64,000 bases of DNA. Origin: Bacteroidota bacterium (GTDB lineage Bacteria; Bacteroidota; Bacteroidia; Chitinophagales; Chitinophagaceae). Below the pieces are notes generated by a model. It did no database searches, was not told where the DNA came from, and saw only the letters and a list, made by a program, of their open reading frames with translations. This document shows positions 3,824 to 11,771 of this stretch, in pieces. Location: the NCBI GenBank assembly GCA_018267625.1, contig JAFDYC010000037.1, positions 21,736-85,735 of the forward strand, read 5' to 3'. The first letter of the stretch is position 1; each line of letters starts with the position of its first letter. Position numbers and translations under genes: made by a program.

Positions 3824-4612
3824 TTACCCGCCCCGTTGTTCCTTCATCAGCATCAGCACCTTCTCAATGTCTTCAGGCCGGTCAATGCAATGGCTGTCGT
3901 GGCGAGTGAGGGCGCAGGTCACCTTATAGCCTGCTTCCAGCCAGCGGAGCTGCTCTAAGGATTCTGCTTTTTCCAGGCTTGAAACAGGCAGCTTCGTGAG
4001 TTGTTCCAGCACATCGCAGCGGTAGGCATACATGCCCACATGCCTGTAATAGGTATGTCGGAGGTGCCACTCCTGTTCGGGCACATCCTTAAGAAAGGGA
4101 ATAACCGAGCGGCTGAAGTAGAGGGCTTCCCGCTGTGGGTTGAGCACCACTTTCACCTCGCCTGTGTCGAAGAGTACATCCTGGCGGTCGGCCTCAATGA
4201 TAAGAGTAGCAATTTGGGATTTGCCATCGTGCAGCACTTCGGCCAGGGTGTCAATCTGAGAAGGGTCAATAAAGGGTTCATCCCCCTGGATATTCATCAG
4301 GTAGCTAGGGGGCAAATGTGTGCCTGTAGAAACCCCGGAAGAGAACAGCCCGAACTTTTGGGCTACTTCAGCGCAGCGGTCGGTACCCGATGGGTGCTGA
4401 TCCGAGGTAAGGATGACTTCGCCGTTGAAGTCCTGAACATGGCGGGCGATGCGTGCATCATCGGTAGCCACGATTACACGGCTCAGGCTCCGGCTTTTAG
4501 AGGCCTGTTCATACACCCGTTGGAGCATACTCTTCCCTTCAATCATCGCCAGTGGCTTGCCAGGAAAACGGCTAGAGGCATAGCGGGCGGGGATGACACC
4601 AAGTATTTGCAC
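3824..4612 (-). CDS. kdsB: 3-deoxy-manno-octulosonate cytidylyltransferase (CMP-Kdo synthetase)
   Basis: MQILGVIPARYASSRFPGKPLAMIEGKSM... is the canonical KdsB N-terminus. NIQGDEPFI motif present. 262 aa. Confidence 0.9.
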   Translation of the reverse strand: MQILGVIPARYASSRFPGKPLAMIEGKSMLQRVYEQASKSRSLSRVIVATDDARIARHVQDFNGEVILTSDQHPSGTDRCAEVAQKFGLFSSGVSTGTHLPPSYLMNIQGDEPFIDPSQIDTLAEVLHDGKSQIATLIIEADRQDVLFDTGEVKVVLNPQREALYFSRSVIPFLKDVPEQEWHLRHTYYRHVGMYAYRCDVLEQLTKLPVSSLEKAESLEQLRWLEAGYKVTCALTRHDSHCIDRPEDIEKVLMLMKEQRGG

Positions 4613-4637: not shown

Positions 4638-5348
4638 TTATCGGGGTACAATTTTCCCATCGCGGAACGAAAAAAGCTGTGTGATTATGGCATTCCGTTC
4701 TGAAAAATATTCCTGATAGCGGTTTGAAAACACGGCTCGTTCTTCAAGCATTTCATCATAGCAGCCACTCAGCCCGGCAAGGAGTTCCATCACTTCGCGG
4801 ACTGCATGATGTGCACCATCCGATGCCGTGAGGTAATCTACCATGCCTTCCCGCAGGGCGTATTGAATCAATAATGGGTTGCAGTCGCGGCCGATCATGA
4901 TGCGGAGGCCACATTCTTTCGCCACGGAGAAATCAAGTACATCATCAAAGAAAAAGGCAACCTCAGCTTCGAGGATACCAAAGGCCTGATGGAGGTGTTG
5001 CATGGCAGCCGACTTATTCTTTGCACCGCAGTATAGGGCATGAAAATGCTCCCGTTGGGCAAAGCCTATAGCTGCCTGATTGTTTTCGCCGGTGATGATT
5101 GCCGTAATTGCCTGCAATTGATTGCGGAGGTGATGATTGAAACGAAGTAGGTTGGTGCCCATAGAATCAACTTCATTAAAAGGCGATTCTCCGGCATTGT
5201 TTTTCCAGCCAGCATTAAACACACCATCCCAGTCAAAGACAAAGGCCTTAATCTGATGTAAGCGTTCAGCTATCACTTCCGGAGCGGTGATGAATTGACC
5301 CTTGAAATGGGCGGCAGTCTCCTGAATGGAATGCATGACAGGTATCAA
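4638..5348 (-). CDS. HAD-superfamily phosphatase, KdsC-like (putative Kdo-8-phosphate phosphatase) with a C-terminal extension
   Basis: Collinear with KdsC: the DxD motif FVFDWDGVF, then AIITGENN, FFFDDVLDFSVAKECGL and GAHHAVREVMELL (compare GGRGAVREVCDLL in E. coli KdsC). Lies between the aldolase-CBS gene and kdsB. Confidence 0.7.
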   Translation of the reverse strand: MIPVMHSIQETAAHFKGQFITAPEVIAERLHQIKAFVFDWDGVFNAGWKNNAGESPFNEVDSMGTNLLRFNHHLRNQLQAITAIITGENNQAAIGFAQREHFHALYCGAKNKSAAMQHLHQAFGILEAEVAFFFDDVLDFSVAKECGLRIMIGRDCNPLLIQYALREGMVDYLTASDGAHHAVREVMELLAGLSGCYDEMLEERAVFSNRYQEYFSERNAIITQLFSFRDGKIVPR

Positions 5349-5392
5349 AAAAGAAGAAAGGCGCTAAGCGGGAAAACCGGGTCTTAGCGCCT
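5347..5392 (-). terminator. Intrinsic terminator-like hairpin between the aldolase-CBS gene and the kdsC-like gene
   Basis: 10-bp perfect stem aggcgctaag (5359-5368) / cttagcgcct (5383-5392). On the minus strand it is followed by UUCUUCUUUU. Confidence 0.5.
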
Positions 5393-5409
5393 CTTCGATG
5401 AATAAAAAA

Positions 5410-6420
5410 CTAAGCCTCCAGGTCCTGAATGTCCAACATACCGACCGGTTTGCCCATTTCAGTGATAAGGATAGTATCCACGTTGGTTTTTTTGAAAAGC
5501 ATCTGGGCATCATTAAGCAGGGCAGAAGCTTCAATGGAAATAGGAGTTTTGTAGCTCATGTCCGCCATCTTCTGATCCAAGATTTGCCCGTTACCGCTTT
5601 GCAGCAGGCGGCGAATGTCACCATCCGTGAAGACACCCAGTAAGGAACCATCCCCCTGCACCACAGTGATGGCGCCAAAGCCGAATTCTGTCATCTTCAC
5701 CAAGGCGTCGCGCAGGGCCATGTCCCCTTGCACCAGCGGATTCACCGGGCGAGCCGCTTCCCGAACGCGAGTCGTCATTAGGCGTGTGTCTTGCAGGAAT
5801 TGCTCCGTACCCACGGTAGTGAAATTATTTTCGGTGAGTTGCTTCAACACTTTCAGCGGTACCGTGATGGTATGCACGCCAATATTTATCGCATTACGGA
5901 CATGCTCAGCATGGCGCACCGAAGAAAACATAATCTTACTGTTGTAGCCATAGCGTAGGGTAGCATCCACACATTGCTCTACAAGGCTGAGTGCATCATG
6001 CCCCTGGTCCTGAAGGCGGCCTACCAGTGGACATACATAAGTAGCTCCTGCGTGCATGGCCATGTAAGCTTGTTGCAGGGTGTAGACAAGATGCACATTC
6101 ACCAACAAACCTTCCTTGCGCAACAGATGGCAGGCGCGGACACCTTCCAGTGATACCGGGATTTTAAAAACGGTACGGGAGGGGTCAAGGCCGAGGTCGA
6201 GCTGGCGTTTGGCTTCCGCCACCACATCTTCGGCTTTGTTTCCCAAGGCTTCGATTTGCAGGACAGGCACCATCTTCGAGAGCTTGACAATCGTGCCGTC
6301 AATATCGGTGATCCCTTCACGTTGCATGAAGGTGGGTGTAGTAGTAAGGCCGTCTAAAAAGCCTAGTTTAAAGCCTTCTTCTATTTCGCGAAGGTTGGCG
6401 GAGTCTAAGTAGAGTTCCAT
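5410..6420 (-). CDS. Fusion protein: FSA/TalC-type class I aldolase domain plus a KdsD-type CBS pair
   Basis: The N-terminus MELYLDSANLREIEE... is collinear with E. coli fructose-6-P aldolase (MELYLDTSD...), and the Schiff-base Lys context VFKIPVS matches VVKVPVT. The C-terminal 110 aa is a CBS pair with LLGVFTDGDIRRLL and VGMLDIQDL, as in KdsD/KpsF. There is no SIS domain. Confidence 0.8.
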   Translation of the reverse strand: MELYLDSANLREIEEGFKLGFLDGLTTTPTFMQREGITDIDGTIVKLSKMVPVLQIEALGNKAEDVVAEAKRQLDLGLDPSRTVFKIPVSLEGVRACHLLRKEGLLVNVHLVYTLQQAYMAMHAGATYVCPLVGRLQDQGHDALSLVEQCVDATLRYGYNSKIMFSSVRHAEHVRNAINIGVHTITVPLKVLKQLTENNFTTVGTEQFLQDTRLMTTRVREAARPVNPLVQGDMALRDALVKMTEFGFGAITVVQGDGSLLGVFTDGDIRRLLQSGNGQILDQKMADMSYKTPISIEASALLNDAQMLFKKTNVDTILITEMGKPVGMLDIQDLEA

Positions 6421-6439
6421 GAAGGTGCAAAGAATATGG

Positions 6440-6859
6440 TTATGGATGAATTAGTGTGAGCAGAAAATCATCGGGACTGTACACCGGAATATCGGAATAA
6501 TAAAAACCGCCTTGGTCATAGGTGATAATAGCTTGGCAGTTTTGGCGCTTTGCAGCAAAGTATTGCAGCCCGTCTTCAAAGTCTTCAATCGCCGGCATAC
6601 TGAATGCGCTCCGTACTTCCTGTACATCGCAGCGCGCAATATTAAGATGATTGGCTACGGAATCAAGGCGAAGCTTAGCAGCCGTCTTCCCAAATTTCTT
6701 CTCAGAGAGATAAAAGCAGGTGGCTAAGGTTAGGGCAGAAGTATACACATCAAATCGCCGGGAATCAATGAGCGACATGACGGCAGCACTCGCCCGCATT
6801 CGAGGCGTTTCTTTTAGCAGAACAGAAGCAATGATGTTTGTGTCCAGAAAGATTCTCAC
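6440..6859 (-). CDS. vapC: PIN-domain toxin (VapC-like)
   Basis: MRIFLDTNIIASVLL... gives the acidic D6 of a PIN domain. 139 aa. There is a 4-nt overlap with the upstream small antitoxin-like ORF. Confidence 0.8.
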   Translation of the reverse strand: MRIFLDTNIIASVLLKETPRMRASAAVMSLIDSRRFDVYTSALTLATCFYLSEKKFGKTAAKLRLDSVANHLNIARCDVQEVRSAFSMPAIEDFEDGLQYFAAKRQNCQAIITYDQGGFYYSDIPVYSPDDFLLTLIHP

Positions 6860-7137
6860 GCCTGGGAATTATTCTTTGAGGCTTTTTTGTATTCCTGAGC
6901 CTCGGCGCGGAGTTCTTTATTCGAACGGGGCTTGGTCGTGTAGGTTACGGGGCCTTCCATTAAAGTCATCAGCCATTCAGAAACCGGAAAATCTTCGATG
7001 CTTTTGTATTCCCTACTGGTACTTTTCCGAAGGAGATATTCGACCAGGCGGCTGAGACTCAGGCCGTTGGCTTCGGCAAAGCCTTTGGCTTTTTCGATAA
7101 CTTCTTTATCGAAGGAGAGGGTGAGCTTGGTGTCCAT
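6856..7137 (-). CDS. Antitoxin partner of VapC (DUF6364-like)
   Basis: I prefer the internal ATG at 7137 (MDTKLTLSFDKEVIEKAKGFAEANGLSLSRLVEYLL...). The long form starting at 7218 would overlap the kdsA stop by 26 nt. Its stop overlaps the vapC start, which is typical type II TA geometry. Confidence 0.65.
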   Translation of the reverse strand: MDTKLTLSFDKEVIEKAKGFAEANGLSLSRLVEYLLRKSTSREYKSIEDFPVSEWLMTLMEGPVTYTTKPRSNKELRAEAQEYKKASKNNSQA

Positions 7138-7192: not shown

Positions 7193-8023
7193 TCACTGAT
7201 TTTTTTTGACAATCTCATGCAAGGCTATCAGTGGCTTCAGAAACGCTTCCAGATCGTACACGCAAAGCTGGCTGGCGGCATCGCAAAGTGCCTTTTCGGG
7301 CTCTGGGTGCGTTTCGATAAACACGCCATCCACACCGGCGGCAACACCGGCACGGCTAAGAACGGGTAAAAACTCTCGTGCTCCGCCCTTGGCATCCGCT
7401 GAAGGAATACCATACTTACGGATGCTGTGCGTGATGTCGAACACCACAGGATAGCCAAGTTGTGCCATATGATAAAATGCCCTTGGGTCCACCACCAGAT
7501 CATTATAGCCCATCGTATAGCCGCGTTCGGTCAGGATGATTTTATCGTTGCCTGAATCCAGACATTTACCCACAGGATGCTTCATGTTTTCCGGCGCCAG
7601 AAACTGCCCGTGTTTGATGTTGATAATACGCCCCGTTTTTGCGGCAGCTACCAACAATCCACTTTGCATACAGAGATAAGCAGGTATCTGAAGGATATCG
7701 CAGACCTCCGCAGCGGGTGCTGCCTGGTCGGGATAATGAATATCAGTCAGGATTGGGAAGCCAAATTGTTCCTTCACTTTCGACAGCATCCGGATACCCT
7801 TATCCAGGCCAGGGCCGTCATAATATTTCAAAGAGCTACGGTTGTCTTTAGTGAATGAGCTTTTATAAATCACGGGCAGTTTCAGCCTTTCGCTCACCTC
7901 GCGAAGAGTTTCGGCTGTTTTCATCATCACCATTTCGTCTTCGATGACGCAAGGGCCTGAGATTAGAAACAGTTGGTCAGCGCCTATTTGAATGTTCCCG
8001 AGTGGAAATTGTTTTTGAGACAT
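7193..8023 (-). CDS. kdsA: 2-dehydro-3-deoxyphosphooctonate aldolase (Kdo-8-P synthase)
   Basis: LISGPCVIE, VIYKSSFTKDNRSS (compare FKSSFDKANRSS) and FDITHS motifs. 276 aa. Confidence 0.9.
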   Translation of the reverse strand: MSQKQFPLGNIQIGADQLFLISGPCVIEDEMVMMKTAETLREVSERLKLPVIYKSSFTKDNRSSLKYYDGPGLDKGIRMLSKVKEQFGFPILTDIHYPDQAAPAAEVCDILQIPAYLCMQSGLLVAAAKTGRIINIKHGQFLAPENMKHPVGKCLDSGNDKIILTERGYTMGYNDLVVDPRAFYHMAQLGYPVVFDITHSIRKYGIPSADAKGGAREFLPVLSRAGVAAGVDGVFIETHPEPEKALCDAASQLCVYDLEAFLKPLIALHEIVKKNQ

Positions 8024-8059: not shown

Positions 8060-9136
8060 TTACATCCTCCGGAACAAGGCCTCGATATCTTCAAGTGTCA
8101 GTTTCGTTTGCCAGTCTTCGCCGATGGCATGGCGCCACATATGTGTAAGGTTAAAAGCCACTTGAGCCATCTTCGTAATAGTCTCATCGCTCCAAGCCTT
8201 GCTGAGGCCCTGCGGTAGTTTGATATCATGCTTCTGAAGCATGGTCTTAAATTCCTTCACACCTTCCGGATAATAGTCTTCCAGATGCTGGAAGGCTACA
8301 CAATTAGCATAGCAATGCTTTTCGTGAAGAATTTTTGAAAGCCCGTAAGAAAGCGCATGACAAACGCCCACCTCTGAATAGGTCAGAGACAAGCCCCCCA
8401 TGAGAGAAGCCACCATCAGTTTATCATCATTAGCCGCCGTTTGCCCTGCCTCATCACCTAAAAAAATGTCGCGGCAAAGCTTAAGCGATTGCTCTGCATA
8501 AGCATGTGAAAAGGCATTGTTCAGCGAGCCATTTTCGCTTTCGATGCAGTGGATATACGTATCCATGCCAGTATAAAACCAACGCTCACGCGGAACCGAG
8601 GCAATCAATTCAGGATCCAGAATCACCTGGTTGAACACCGTCCAGTCACATTTAAGGCCTAGTTTTTTTTCAGGCCCGGTCAGCACAGCCGTCATACTCA
8701 CTTCCGCACCGGTGCCTGAAATTGTAGGAACCCCGAGGTGATAAATGCCGGGTTTCTGAATCAGGTTCAAACCCTGATATTGGGTAGAAGAACCATCATT
8801 CGTAAACATCAGCGACACGGCCTTGGCAATGTCCATAATGCTGCCTCCGCCGATACCTATTACACCGGCTGGAATGCCTTTGGCCTGCATGGTTTCATCG
8901 CGGAGCGCATCTATCTGTTCTGTGGTCGGCTCATGCGGGTCCACATCAATAAAATGAACTAGGTCCCCAGCAGCAGCCGGCAGCCTTTTTTCCAGTTCTT
9001 TTCCTTTGAAGAAATGGTCAACGACAAACAGGAAGAAACCTCCGTTACGGCGTTCGGCCAGGATTTGTTCCATCATCGAAAATGAACCACGGCCGTAGCA
9101 GACCTTCTCAATATTCTTGAAATTCTTATGCTCCAC
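8060..9136 (-). CDS. kdnB: Iron-containing alcohol dehydrogenase family protein; by context KdnB-like (Kdo 8-oxidase)
   Basis: Fe-ADH signature GIGGGSIMDIAKAV and metal His contexts YIHCIE and CHALSYG. The position between kdsA and a DegT aminotransferase plus waaA mirrors the Shewanella Kdo8N locus. Family confidence is about 0.85; the specific function is inferred. Confidence 0.6.
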   Translation of the reverse strand: MEHKNFKNIEKVCYGRGSFSMMEQILAERRNGGFFLFVVDHFFKGKELEKRLPAAAGDLVHFIDVDPHEPTTEQIDALRDETMQAKGIPAGVIGIGGGSIMDIAKAVSLMFTNDGSSTQYQGLNLIQKPGIYHLGVPTISGTGAEVSMTAVLTGPEKKLGLKCDWTVFNQVILDPELIASVPRERWFYTGMDTYIHCIESENGSLNNAFSHAYAEQSLKLCRDIFLGDEAGQTAANDDKLMVASLMGGLSLTYSEVGVCHALSYGLSKILHEKHCYANCVAFQHLEDYYPEGVKEFKTMLQKHDIKLPQGLSKAWSDETITKMAQVAFNLTHMWRHAIGEDWQTKLTLEDIEALFRRM

Positions 9137-9177: not shown

Positions 9178-10386
9178 TCAGGCTCTCATCGGGCGTAAGG
9201 CTTGTTCCACACATTGGCTGATTTGTCCGGCCAAGACCTGAACCTCTTCATCTGTCCAGGTGCAACGAATACCAAAGGAAATCAAGCGGCCAATTACTTC
9301 CTGGGATTTGGGCAGTTCCAGATTCGCATAATCCTGTGGTGCACCCAGGAGCTGCACATTCAGCCTGCTGACGGTGCTCATACTCTTAATATGGTCCCAC
9401 TGGTTGATGAAGTGATACATGTTCGTAAACCAATAATTGACCCCACCCACACCTGCTTTATTCAGCTCGGCTACTACCTGCTGAGCCGATACCTTGTCGG
9501 GCAGGAACATGTTCAGGAAGGTGGCACTATCGCCATCTGGGTCGGCCAGCCGGGCAAATGAAACACCAGGTAACTTGCTCAGCGCATCGGTCAGGGCCCT
9601 TTTGTGCCGGCGATTGGCAGCCAACACTTGAGGCACACGGCGCGTTTGCACAGCACCAACGGCGGCATTCATCTCACCAATCCTATAATTAAAACCCAAA
9701 ACAGGATGAGGTTCCATGCCCCGGTTGTTGCCTACGTGGCTGTGGCCATGGTCTGAATAAGTGTCAGCGAGTTTATATACTGCTTCATCATTGGTTATCA
9801 GGACACCTCCTTCACCAGCAGTTGCAATCTTGAAAAAATCGAAAGAGAACGCCCCGGCCTTGCCAAACAAGCCTACCGACTTGCCTTTGTAGGAAGCACC
9901 GAAAGCCTGACCAGCATCATCCACTAATGTCAGATTGTGCTCCCGGCATACTTCCAGTACAGCATCCATATCCCCCATACCGCCGCACATATGCACGATG
10001 CACACAGCCTTGGTCTTGGGTGTTATGGCTTTACGGATGCCTTCGGCAGAAAGGCAAAGAGTCTCATCAATTTCCGCAAACACCGGTAAGGCACCGACAA
10101 ACAGTACCGCCTCGATGGTGGCGATAAAAGTGAACGGAGGGACAATCACTTCATCCCCCGCACCAATGCCCGAAGCTGCCAGAGCCGTGATGACTGCCGT
10201 AGAACCGGAGGAAACAGCATGAGCATATTTCGCACCGGTGATTTTCCGCACCTCAGCTTCAAAGTCACGGGCCTTCCAATGACCGGCGCGTTGGGCATCG
10301 TGGTTGTAACGAAAAAGGACGCCTGTTTCGAGGACGTCCGCAACTTCTTTGCGCTCTTCAGCGCCGAATAATTCTGTTCCGGGCAT
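9178..10386 (-). CDS. kdnA: DegT/DnrJ/EryC1-family PLP aminotransferase; by context KdnA-like (Kdo8N transaminase)
   Basis: PLP-Lys context SFDFFKIATAGEGGV, and AHAVSSGSTAV. I use the ATG at 10386 (MPGTELFGAEE...). The track start at 10425 is a TTG that abuts the waaA stop. Confidence 0.6.
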   Translation of the reverse strand: MPGTELFGAEERKEVADVLETGVLFRYNHDAQRAGHWKARDFEAEVRKITGAKYAHAVSSGSTAVITALAASGIGAGDEVIVPPFTFIATIEAVLFVGALPVFAEIDETLCLSAEGIRKAITPKTKAVCIVHMCGGMGDMDAVLEVCREHNLTLVDDAGQAFGASYKGKSVGLFGKAGAFSFDFFKIATAGEGGVLITNDEAVYKLADTYSDHGHSHVGNNRGMEPHPVLGFNYRIGEMNAAVGAVQTRRVPQVLAANRRHKRALTDALSKLPGVSFARLADPDGDSATFLNMFLPDKVSAQQVVAELNKAGVGGVNYWFTNMYHFINQWDHIKSMSTVSRLNVQLLGAPQDYANLELPKSQEVIGRLISFGIRCTWTDEEVQVLAGQISQCVEQALRPMRA

Positions 10387-10421
10387 GACGATAATGATTT
10401 GGAGCCGCAAAAGTACAGGCT

Positions 10422-11666
10422 TCAATGAGCGACAGGCAGCAAGGAAAGGATTTTAGCAGTTGCTCCTGTTTGCGACACTACCTGCCTGCTCATTGCCTCT
10501 GCCAGCCGCTCCCGCAACGCGTCATCGGATGTCAAAAGCTGCAATCGTTCGTACAATGAAGATTCATCAGCAACTGCAAATGCCAGCCCCAGCCTCACGA
10601 GCTCAACGGCTTCACGAAATTTCTGATAATTGGGCCCCATCACAACGGGCAAGCCAAAAACGGCAGGCTCGAGAACATTATGAATGCCACCCCGGTTAAA
10701 CCCGCCTCCGATACAGGCCAACGCTCCATAACGATATAAAGAAGACAACATGCCGATGTTATCAATCACCAATACGCGCTCCTGCCCGCCCGGCTTGTAT
10801 GCAGAATAGAAAATACATTCCTTCCCGAAGGCTTCCTGAATTGCAGATAAATGCACCGTATCAATTTCATGAGGGGCCAAAACCAGTTTCCAGCCCTGGG
10901 GCATATGGGGCAGGTAGCTGCACAACAACCGTTCATCTTCAGGCCAGGTGCTACCAGCAATAATGAGTTTATCATCGCCGCGGAAAGATTCTATAATAGG
11001 AATCGGCCTCGCTTCAGAAGCAATAGTAGCCACGCGGTCATAGCGTGTGTCGCCAGTGATTACCGCCTTCCCTGCCAGGCCCCGGGCTTGCAGCAAACTG
11101 AGTGAATGTGCATCCTGCAAACTGAGCAAGGAAAACAGGCGAAGCATCTTCCTAAAAAAAAGACCCCACCAGGCAAAGAAAGGTTGCGACTCCCGGAAGA
11201 TGCCCGACACCAGCACAGAAGGAATTTTCCTAAGCGACAATTCGTTCAGGTAGAAATACCAAAACTCATACTTCACAAAAAGTGCCTGTGTAGGTTGCAG
11301 AAAATCGAGAAAACGGGCAGCAGCATGCGGGCCGTCCATAGGCAGGTAACAGACTAAATCGGCAAACGGATAGTCTTTTCGGGGTTCATAACCGGAAGGG
11401 GAAAAGAAACTGAGCAGTACAACACAGCCCGGGTCACGGGCTTTGAGCGCTTCTATCAAGGGCCTGCCTTGTTCAAACTCGCCCAAAGAAGCACAATGCA
11501 TCCAGTAGCGGACCTGATGGGCCTTAGATACCGGAACCTGTTTTGCGAGCCTCTGCCATTGCCCCTTTCGGCCCCTCATCCAGGCCCCAGCTTTTTTATT
11601 CCATAATGAAGAAATTGCGATTGCCGCCTGATAGAGCCAGAGGAAAAGTCGGTAGAGCAGCAGCAC
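10422..11666 (-). CDS. waaA: 3-deoxy-D-manno-octulosonic acid transferase
   Basis: WMHCASLGEFEQGRPLIEAL and the N-terminal LLLYRLFLWLYQ...MRGRKG resemble E. coli WaaA (LLYTALLYLIQP...VRGRKA). The track start (TTG at 11753) spans the upstream terminator hairpin, so I prefer the in-frame GTG at 11666. The start remains uncertain. Confidence 0.8.
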   Translation of the reverse strand: MLLLYRLFLWLYQAAIAISSLWNKKAGAWMRGRKGQWQRLAKQVPVSKAHQVRYWMHCASLGEFEQGRPLIEALKARDPGCVVLLSFFSPSGYEPRKDYPFADLVCYLPMDGPHAAARFLDFLQPTQALFVKYEFWYFYLNELSLRKIPSVLVSGIFRESQPFFAWWGLFFRKMLRLFSLLSLQDAHSLSLLQARGLAGKAVITGDTRYDRVATIASEARPIPIIESFRGDDKLIIAGSTWPEDERLLCSYLPHMPQGWKLVLAPHEIDTVHLSAIQEAFGKECIFYSAYKPGGQERVLVIDNIGMLSSLYRYGALACIGGGFNRGGIHNVLEPAVFGLPVVMGPNYQKFREAVELVRLGLAFAVADESSLYERLQLLTSDDALRERLAEAMSRQVVSQTGATAKILSLLPVAH

Positions 11667-11718
11667 GGCTGCGAAAGTAGGCGAACCGAATACGAAAGGC
11701 GGAGGTATGACAGGAGTA

Positions 11719-11747
11719 GAAAAGCAAAACCCCGCGGGAAGCGGGGT
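11719..11747 (-). terminator. Intrinsic terminator after the 2TM gene
   Basis: 7-bp GC-rich stem accccgc (11729-11735) / gcggggt (11741-11747). On the minus strand it is followed by UUUGCUUUU. Confidence 0.6.
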
Positions 11748-11771
11748 CTTCAATATGAGGGGAAGCTGGAT

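Follow-up and report, generated by a model that had tools for sequence, protein, structure and literature searches.

3-Deoxy-D-manno-octulosonate (Kdo) links lipid A to the rest of the lipopolysaccharide (LPS), and the textbook pathway to this sugar starts with the SIS-domain enzyme KdsD, a pursued antibacterial target. KdsD and its relatives KpsF and GutQ are built of a SIS domain and a C-terminal CBS pair. A different group of proteins, the class I (Schiff-base) aldolases of the TAL_FSA family, has been connected with D-arabinose 5-phosphate (A5P), the substrate of Kdo 8-phosphate (Kdo8P) synthase, in an engineered pathway: E. coli fructose-6-phosphate aldolase (FSA) FsaA and TalB F178Y form A5P from glycolaldehyde and D-glyceraldehyde 3-phosphate (G3P) both in vitro and in vivo (PMC9947464). 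Here, a stretch of 64,000 nucleotides from a Bacteroidota bacterium of the family Chitinophagaceae (GCA_018267625.1, contig JAFDYC010000037.1, positions 21,736 to 85,735; hereafter, the window) was analysed. On its minus strand, positions 5410–6420 hold an open reading frame (ORF) of 336 amino acids with an ATG start, in which the ORF list, Pfam, NCBIfam and an AlphaFold model reveal a TalC/FSA-type barrel fused to a KdsD-type CBS pair. Judged from its sequence and gene context, the fusion protein probably supplies A5P to Kdo8P synthase, as a non-orthologous replacement of KdsD/KpsF, the isomerase with a SIS domain. The observation made in a preliminary description of the window is confirmed, and its interpretation, namely aldol chemistry leading to or from A5P or a CBS-gated fructose 6-phosphate (F6P) aldolase, is partly supported.

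Architecture and active site of the fusion protein

Pfam analysis assigned residues 3–201 to TAL_FSA (PF00923; E-value, 1.1e-32; 114 bits, cutoff 27) and residues 228–274 to CBS (1e-11), with only the first CBS motif above the threshold; the second one was recovered by the KdsD models of NCBIfam and in the AlphaFold model. The preliminary description had expected Pfam to find TAL_FSA, two CBS motifs and no SIS domain, and all of this held except for the second CBS motif. In NCBIfam, residues 1–211 match fsa_talC_mipB (TIGR00875) end-to-end (5e-49), in agreement with the early assignment of residues 1 to about 215 to a TAL/FSA-class barrel, and the equivalog cutoff of that model is missed (166.6 bits vs. 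245.95). The AlphaFold model of the full-length protein (mean predicted local distance difference test (pLDDT) score, 92.7; predicted template modelling (pTM) score, 0.74) comprises a barrel of eight strands, after which come two CBS motifs, each with the order beta-alpha-beta-beta-alpha. Besides the fusion gene, a profile search of the window ORFs revealed no second TAL or CBS ORF.

The barrel, residues 1–214 (5779–6420, minus strand), is a class I TIM barrel of a distinct His-Cys-Leu subfamily of TAL_FSA according to Pfam, PDB phmmer, Foldseek and a neighbour-joining (NJ) tree. Its nearest solved proteins by sequence (PDB phmmer) are 1VPX (2e-37), 3R8R (4e-36) and 3S0C (4e-33), all of them small TalC-type transaldolases, to which Foldseek gave template modelling (TM) scores of 0.91–0.94. 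E. coli FSA, to which the preliminary description had compared the start of the protein and its lysine motif, is a much weaker match (~1e-14).

Alignment to the Thermoplasma acidophilum transaldolase (TacTal) revealed that Asp6, Glu57 (TacTal Glu60), Lys86, Asn108, Arg135, Ser167 and Arg169 are all present in the barrel. The lysine of the VFKIPVS motif, proposed earlier as the Schiff-base residue, aligns with the transaldolase Schiff-base Lys86 (codon 6163–6165, minus strand), and the catalytic set of TAL_FSA, that is, the Schiff-base lysine, the Asp6/Glu acid–base residues and the phosphate-binding Arg135/Ser167/Arg169, is in place. Four residues differ from the same enzyme: Thr110 is changed to His, Ser130 to Cys, Phe132 to Leu, and Asn28 to Thr28. 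His110 (codon 6091–6093, minus strand) is the hallmark of the subfamily and stands in place of the Thr110 conserved in transaldolases and FSA, while in Cys130-Pro131-Leu132 (codons 6025–6033, minus strand) cysteine is found for Ser130 (FSA Ala129) and leucine for Phe132 (FSA Tyr131). The residues diagnostic of FSA (Gln59, Leu107, Ala129 and Tyr131) are Glu57, Asn108, Cys130 and Leu132 in the fusion protein, and the Thr110/Ser130/Phe132 of TalC transaldolases are replaced by His110/Cys130/Leu132 clade-wide. In Tal/FSA enzymes, Ser130 and Asn108 presumably hold the C1-hydroxyl of the ketose donor, Thr110 presumably positions the catalytic water, and whether such an enzyme behaves as a transferase or an aldolase is assumed to depend on the Phe/Tyr position (132/131). 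Of the three positions that are changed, two are taken to be the equivalents of TalB Ser176 (donor C1-hydroxyl) and Thr156 (catalytic water). With residue roles so assigned, the swaps would cluster around the donor carbon beside the imine. Based on these alignments, the catalytic domain is not FSA-like; it belongs to a separate clade nearest the TalC transaldolases, with a His/Cys/Leu active-site signature.

The CBS pair, residues 217–336 (5413–5772, minus strand), was characterised by NCBIfam, PDB, BLASTP and fold matching. Residues 217–334 match the C-terminal CBS region of KpsF (2e-13) and KdsD (1.3e-12), with the next CBS-containing NCBIfam family about six orders of magnitude weaker, and TIGR00393 (KdsD/KpsF/GutQ) is matched only at model positions 155–267, its CBS part. 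By sequence, the best PDB entries are 4O9K (7.8e-13), 3K2V (7.5e-10) and 3FNA (7e-7), generic CBS proteins scoring 1e-6 or weaker. A model of the CBS part only (pLDDT, 90.9) has CBS-pair chains of A5P isomerases as its four best matches by fold, namely two from 3K2V and two from 4O9K (TM, 0.86–0.88). BLASTP aligned the pair with that of E. coli KdsD at 26% identity (E-value, 4e-12), bringing GVFTDGDIRR and VGMLDIQDL of the fusion protein opposite GIFTDGDLRR and LGVLHMHDL of KdsD; the GxFTDGDxRR and GxLxxxDL strings, on which the first assignment to KdsD/KpsF had relied, are thus common to both. The CBS pair is of the KdsD type, which ranks first in three independent comparisons (NCBIfam, PDB sequence and PDB fold). 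If 4O9K is a complex with cytidine monophosphate-Kdo (CMP-Kdo), this likeness suggests that the fusion protein may be under end-product control.

The His-Cys-Leu subfamily and its association with Kdo8P synthase

The fusion gene lies in a tight co-directional string of minus-strand genes, in the order waaA, a DegT aminotransferase gene, an iron-containing alcohol dehydrogenase (Fe-ADH) gene, kdsA, a toxin-antitoxin pair, the fusion gene, a KdsC-like HAD phosphatase gene and kdsB. The ORF list, Pfam and NCBIfam bear out the first account of this locus, in which the fusion gene was placed downstream of kdsA and upstream of the KdsC-like gene and kdsB, with waaA and a kdnAB-like pair in the same string. 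A SIS-isomerase profile built from E. coli KdsD, 5UQI and Bacteroides fragilis 3ETN recovered its positive controls at 3e-94 and 1.8e-17; with it, no SIS-domain ORF was found in the window (394 ORFs with a length of 60 amino acids or more), as had been noticed earlier, and no SIS isomerase in the ~2.2 Mb of flanks of 173 loci. The fusion protein itself possesses the CBS pair of KdsD/KpsF/GutQ and no SIS domain.

Taken together, the homology searches returned thousands of sequences, and a search of 1.84 billion representative sequences yielded full-length fused proteins down to ~30% identity. The His-Cys/Ser-Leu signature is present in 12 of the 16 fused representatives, 11 of which have exactly E-K-N-H-C-L-R-S-R after D-T-T-[N/T], while P0234 deviates at three other positions. 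His110 was also found in 13 genuine stand-alone proteins of ~210–230 amino acids (two with Cys instead of Leu132). Overall, the catalytic members show little or no variation in D-[N/T]-E-K-N-H-C-L-R-S-R, and Lys86 is kept in 12 of the 16 fused representatives and in all 80 covering ORFs of the 82 metagenomic TAL ORFs. In an NJ tree rooted on FSA, all 31 His-bearing sequences group with four degenerate fused proteins in a single clade of 35, with no Thr-type sequence within it, and fused and stand-alone forms are interleaved; since the tree carries no bootstrap values, this result is indicative only. Midpoint rooting was discarded, as it splits the His clade artificially.

The four degenerate proteins (P0125, P0129, P0132 and P0147) branch beside the sub-clade of the query itself. 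Although full-length, they have lost Lys86, Asp6 and the Arg135 motif; the GVFTDGDLRR motif of the CBS pair is kept. They are probably pseudo-enzymes with a new role. The single readable context among them, that of P0125 (L083), adjoins a Peptidase_M61 gene and contains no kds genes.

Within the GTDB species-representative genomes, 467 stretches encode a relative of the fusion protein, and the best 80 of these 467 loci (76–88% identity; Chitinophagaceae, Flavipsychrobacter, Taibaiella and similar) were analysed. Upstream kdsA is present in 60/80, the downstream KdsC-like gene in 60/80 and kdsB in 64/80, all co-directional; contig ends truncate many of the other loci. Close relatives thus share the linkage to kds genes, and it persists in fused members of only 32–41% identity, in a second phylum and beside stand-alone barrels. 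The fused members at 32–41% identity adjoin DAHP_synth_1 in 4/4 informative contexts (L081, L082, L086 and L087), three of which also contain CTP_transf_3, in polysaccharide clusters which are otherwise different. The gene of the stand-alone P0162 overlaps kdsA by 4 bp in a cassette composed of KdsB-like, a 96-amino-acid ORF, KdsA and the barrel.

A metagenome scan was seeded with barrel sequences only (a six-sequence subset of a 23-sequence alignment) and yielded 80 loci, at 38–51% identity to the seed except for the seed's own contig (100%). All 48 loci with at least 900 bp on both sides contain a KdsA-family gene, which is directly adjacent in 39 of them, and the adjacent KdsA copies are on the same strand in 57/57 cases. 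Where at least 2.5 kb is available on both sides, KdsA lies within 4 kb in 39/40 loci; these 40 comprise 11 with KdsA, HAD and KdsB, 11 with KdsA and KdsB, and six with KdsA and HAD, the minimal cassettes being barrel-kdsA-kdsB alone. All ten sampled KdsA partners score above the Kdo8P-synthase equivalog cutoff (278–370 bits vs. 242). As the pattern used in the search included the His motif, the constancy of the signature in these loci is partly by construction, which does not apply to the KdsA adjacency. The control contexts, those of the Thr/Ser/Phe-type TalC homologs P0161 and P0169, are contigs of just 1–2 kb. Altogether, the barrel stands beside Kdo8P synthase in well over a hundred loci, and the association is tied to the barrel, not to the CBS fusion as such.

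The 96-amino-acid ORF of the P0162 cassette (L090, 6902–7192) has no Pfam hit and is 74% identical to an ORF located just downstream of the fusion gene in L082 (4231–4521). It starts with MIYAVDIDGVLC, a HAD motif I, which points to a minimal KdsC-like phosphatase; the ORF appears to encode a capless enzyme of this type that would complete the cassette for CMP-Kdo. Among the ORFs of the metagenomic loci, 20 were matched by a profile of this short ORF. The Kdo8P synthase domain of L086 constitutes the N-terminal 240 residues of a 686-amino-acid protein (4913–6973), the remainder of which is unannotated. A radical SAM/SPASM gene is found in a small cluster with the barrel and kdsA in L081 (7061–8035) and L086 (6987–7940), which hints at a modified Kdo-type sugar.

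By source names, one distant clade is gammaproteobacterial (marine metagenome-assembled genomes, MAGs) and includes two members on contigs of 2.2 and 4.7 Mb. Its arrangement, waaA-kdsA-fusion-HAD among housekeeping genes, is again that of an LPS-core operon. A location of the fusion gene in the kdsD-kdsC-lptCAB slot of Gammaproteobacteria was ruled out by L165, where waaA-kdsA-fusion-HAD occurs with no lpt genes. A profile search also returned members named after MAGs of Nitrospirota, Spirochaetales, Bacteroidales and Thermonemataceae.

Three His-Cys-Leu members, P0410, P0418 and P0446, are attributed to archaeal MAGs (Thermoplasmatota, Helarchaeota and Pacearchaeota), that is, to groups of archaea that have no LPS; either Kdo-type sugars are made by archaea with the barrel module, or these are binning artefacts. 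Two further records, L024 (JANLJF010000062.1, a MAG of the betaproteobacterium Azovibrio restrictus) and L023 (CABHOP010000056.1, uncultured Bacteroides sp.), both carry the Chitinophagaceae-type operon with 83% protein identity and identical gene spacing, and their labels probably stem from mistakes made in binning or labelling of the public entries.

The source annotations of the family read solely "transaldolase family protein", "TalC/MipB family fructose-6-phosphate aldolase" or "CBS domain-containing protein". Nothing relevant came out of literature searches on the fusion itself, a naturally occurring A5P aldolase or synthase, Kdo synthesis that bypasses KdsD, and 4O9K, and no NCBIfam model for the barrel family was found; the earlier statement that the architecture has no characterised member thus agrees with both the papers and the curated models. 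A cyanophage paper naming TalC, KdsA and KdsB together proved unrelated. The family represents a novel functional form of a known fold, with a domain combination that is likewise novel, and it would be a new kind of enzyme if its chemistry differs from the FSA-type aldol reaction.

Proposed role and rival explanations

Cassettes for CMP-Kdo which have the synthase, phosphatase and cytidylyltransferase, and often the transferase, but are short of an A5P source, and which contain one unexplained enzyme, often with the regulatory module of KdsD, are most simply read as a displacement of the isomerase; the Kdo8P-synthase scores of the sampled partners make A5P the requirement of the neighbour. As regards the chemistry, the imine at Lys86 would involve C1 of an aldehyde or aldose instead of C2 of a ketose. 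A5P is equivalent to F6P minus C1, and with an aldehyde at Lys86 the C2–C3 bond of A5P would be made or broken with the stereochemistry of the family. The most economical version would be an FSA-like aldol addition of glycolaldehyde to G3P, yielding D-A5P, in which His110 may take a proton-transfer role at the nucleophilic carbon, as Tyr131 does in FSA, and Cys130 may fill the pocket vacated by the absent hydroxymethyl group. The CBS pair, derived from a KdsD-like ancestor protein, would provide KdsD-like allosteric control, probably by a nucleotide or CMP-Kdo. By analogy with FSA, formation of A5P from glycolaldehyde and G3P is proposed tentatively, as a possible rather than a probable route. 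Binding of A5P by this fold also has a precedent in the covalent adduct with a transaldolase reported by Light and Anderson in 2014. Two other routes were rejected by chemical reasoning: isomerisation of ribulose 5-phosphate (Ru5P) to A5P on a lysine imine would end in a Heyns-type amino-sugar adduct, and Tal-type cleavage of F6P, sedoheptulose 7-phosphate or xylulose 5-phosphate would give a wrong carbon skeleton or stereochemistry.

Several points weigh against supply of A5P by the fusion protein, or against the aldol route to it. Glycolaldehyde does not belong to the standard abundant metabolites, and none of the conserved genes of the cassettes, the smallest of which consist of the barrel, kdsA and kdsB, would make it. 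The general acid of FSA, Tyr131, is absent, and we infer its replacement by His110. The likeness of the CBS pair to that of KdsD is modest (26% identity), and in four loci at 77–78% identity (L062, L063, L073 and L077) kds genes are missing within 10 kb of the fusion gene, the Kdo operon being evidently dispersed in some lineages. Since kdsD lies away from kdsA in many bacteria, its absence from ~2.2 Mb of flanks is weak evidence, and because near-duplicates occur among the metagenomic loci, the independent lineages are fewer than the loci counted. In addition, A5P is reported to inhibit both transaldolase and ribose-5-phosphate isomerase (PMC7895386), the ordinary transaldolase being described as inhibited by A5P and not as turning it over.

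With no conserved cassette gene to provide glycolaldehyde, its supply is the weak point of the aldol route, and conversion of a pentose phosphate is therefore kept as a serious alternative. The His-Cys-Leu barrel might carry out a chemistry undescribed for any enzyme, either a Schiff-base conversion of a pentose phosphate to A5P, such as 2-epimerisation of ribose 5-phosphate (R5P), or a transaldolase-like transfer to G3P of two carbons as a glycolaldehyde unit; such an undescribed chemistry as a whole seems unlikely. A Schiff-base 2-epimerase would supply A5P with no aldol condensation: most plausibly, R5P would be bound via C1 to Lys86 and its C2 inverted through an enaminol, with His110 acting from one side and the Glu57/water system from the opposite side, or else a retro-aldol step would be followed by re-addition in the active site. 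The minimal cassettes, devoid of a glycolaldehyde-making partner, suggest that the substrate should be a universal metabolite; the occurrence of the subfamily in very different organisms, including archaeal MAGs, fits such a substrate, and the His and Cys swaps offer two potential acid/base residues around the carbon beside the imine. Yet no precedent for an aldose 2-epimerase of the Schiff-base type is known to us, its aldimine enaminol would be prone to Amadori rearrangement, and TAL/FSA enzymes are specific for the threo configuration, which A5P has and R5P lacks; epimerisation in particular appears quite unlikely. An ordinary CBS-gated transaldolase or F6P aldolase tuning the pentose-phosphate flux toward Ru5P, with a canonical A5P isomerase elsewhere in the genome, would agree with the bona fide transaldolases among the closest solved structures and with the retention of Asp6, Glu57, Lys86, Asn108, Arg135, Ser167 and Arg169. 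This alternative, raised in the preliminary description in its F6P aldolase form, is disfavoured and appears quite unlikely: Gln59 and Tyr131 of FSA are replaced, as are, clade-wide, the Tal-conserved Thr110, Ser130 and Phe132, the fsa_talC_mipB equivalog cutoff is missed (166.6 vs. 245.95), and translational coupling to kdsA in LPS-core and capsule/O-antigen-like clusters across phyla is unexpected for a housekeeping enzyme.

A role after or against KdsA is improbable. The fusion protein might act as a safety valve cleaving A5P to glycolaldehyde and G3P, or as a Schiff-base aldolase/epimerase on Kdo8P or Kdo; aldol reactions are reversible, removal of A5P could help in view of its inhibition of transaldolase and ribose-5-phosphate isomerase (PMC7895386), and some clusters contain extra tailoring genes (radical SAM enzymes, methyltransferases and aminotransferases). 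The cassettes, however, are complete for CMP-Kdo apart from exactly the A5P-forming step, a degradative enzyme releasing toxic glycolaldehyde inside a core LPS operon is hard to rationalise, and the KdsD-type CBS pair indicates the pathway position of KdsD. Highly improbable is a barrel serving as a non-catalytic sugar-phosphate sensor or KdsA partner, which would bind A5P, covalently or not, with no turnover. Non-catalytic versions of the fold do exist, as the fused P0125, P0129, P0132 and P0147 devoid of Lys86, Asp6 and Arg135 indicate, and a stable covalent adduct of A5P with transaldolase was reportedly described by Light and Anderson in 2014; against this, the degenerate member with a readable context (P0125) is not beside kds genes, and in every kdsA-linked member the full catalytic set is retained and strongly constrained.

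If the fusion protein does supply A5P in place of KdsD, there are two unrelated ways to begin an essential pathway of the envelope. Should the undescribed barrel chemistry be true, there would be a second, widespread, isomerase-independent entry to Kdo in bacteria and archaea, and lineages that lack the drug target KdsD. Under the same assumption of A5P supply, annotation as "transaldolase" or "CBS domain-containing protein" would lead metabolic reconstructions to show a gap in the Kdo pathway together with a spurious pentose-phosphate enzyme. The class I aldolase family would also gain a natural member tuned to an aldose/aldehyde donor, which would be of direct interest to biocatalysis and to the synthetic pathways of glycolaldehyde assimilation, which now depend on a promiscuous activity of FSA.

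The Kdo gene string of the window and comparison with known systems

All genes of the string are on the minus strand. The first is a waaA-like Kdo transferase gene (10422–11753; Pfam Glycos_transf_N, 8.5e-39), for which the best NCBIfam models, those of lipid IV(A) Kdo transferase, stay below their cutoffs. It is followed by the DegT aminotransferase gene (KdnA-like; 9178–10425; Pfam) and the Fe-ADH gene (KdnB-like; 8060–9136; Pfam). The A5P consumer, Kdo8P synthase, is encoded by kdsA at 7193–8023 (NF003543, 347.6 bits, cutoff 242; TIGR01362, 334 bits, cutoff 314), and kdsB, coding for CMP-Kdo synthetase, is located at 3824–4612 (NF003952, 308 bits, cutoff 193; TIGR00466, 211 bits, cutoff 155). 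Genes outside the string are unrelated to it: peptidases, GSCFA, a GDSL lipase, and type IX secretion system cargo typical of Bacteroidota. Among the four relatives with no kds neighbour, only L073 is annotated; there, the fusion gene is isolated amid housekeeping genes, next to those of a FabI-like reductase and RecA.

The gene of the divergent KdsC-like HAD phosphatase (4638–5348) lies 61 bp downstream of the fusion gene. Its best NCBIfam matches are KdsC models (4.4e-17), below cutoff: the protein has 236 amino acids compared with the 187 positions of the KdsC model, the match is confined to residues 23–191, and the score is far under the cutoff (62 bits vs. 208). Such a gene is found downstream of the fusion gene in 60/80 of the best loci, and a 215-amino-acid form occurs in the gammaproteobacterial loci. 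By these comparisons, it looks like a divergent Kdo8P phosphatase lineage.

Inserted within the Kdo operon between kdsA and the fusion gene is a pair (6440–7137) composed of a PIN toxin gene (6440–6859) and a DUF6364 antitoxin-like gene (6856–7137; likely start, Met28). A PIN match is present in 15 of the 80 related loci, in 14 of them at the same position, and a DUF6364 match in six; given this recurrence, the insertion looks old, being either recurrent or inherited.

The products of KdnB and KdnA make 8-amino-Kdo (Kdo8N) in Shewanella. The Fe-ADH and DegT genes co-occur with the fusion gene in 50/80 and 39/80 of the Chitinophagaceae-type loci, respectively, and are also found in several unrelated loci from metagenomes, namely L151, L152, L160, L161 and L173. 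This KdnB/KdnA-like pair, recognised by Pfam family alone, suggests that Kdo8N may be far more widespread than Shewanella; a KdnB precedent is cited in PMC5125639.

Compared with the TalC-type transaldolases (TacTal, 3S0C; Thermotoga maritima, 1VPX; Bacillus subtilis, 3R8R), the barrel of the fusion protein has the same fold (TM, 0.91–0.94) and the same length at 33–35% identity, and it shares Asp6, Glu60 (TacTal numbering), Lys86, Asn108, Arg135, Ser167 and Arg169 with them. Unlike these enzymes, the fusion protein has His110/Cys130/Leu132/Thr28 and a C-terminal CBS pair, and its context is that of Kdo and not of the pentose-phosphate pathway. E. coli FsaA belongs to the same superfamily, uses the same Schiff-base chemistry and converts glycolaldehyde and G3P to A5P (PMC9947464), but it is distant (~1e-14), with Gln59, Leu107, Ala129 and Tyr131 opposite Glu57, Asn108, Cys130 and Leu132 of the fusion protein, and its formation of A5P is a promiscuous activity exploited in synthetic pathways; no part in making Kdo is known for it. 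The sulfofructose transaldolase BmSF-TAL (8BC3/8C4I), a homolog at 3.5e-21, is a further small barrel of the TalC family that was recruited for another substrate and another pathway; in contrast to the fusion protein, it acts in sulfosugar catabolism and has neither a CBS pair nor a link to Kdo.

On the side of the A5P isomerases, a departure of Bacteroidota from the SIS and CBS architecture is already known from the B. fragilis enzyme 3ETN, which keeps SIS and drops CBS, the opposite of what is seen in the fusion protein. In KdsD/KpsF/GutQ, which consist of SIS and a CBS pair, the C-terminal pair is homologous to that of the fusion protein, including GxFTDGDxRR, whereas the SIS domain is replaced in the latter by the unrelated fold of a TIM-barrel aldolase, and the enediol isomerase mechanism of KdsD would not be available to a Schiff-base enzyme acting on Ru5P. 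The pathway step proposed for the fusion protein is the same as that of KdsD/KpsF/GutQ, and so, by the same proposal, is the type of gene cluster, that of KpsF.

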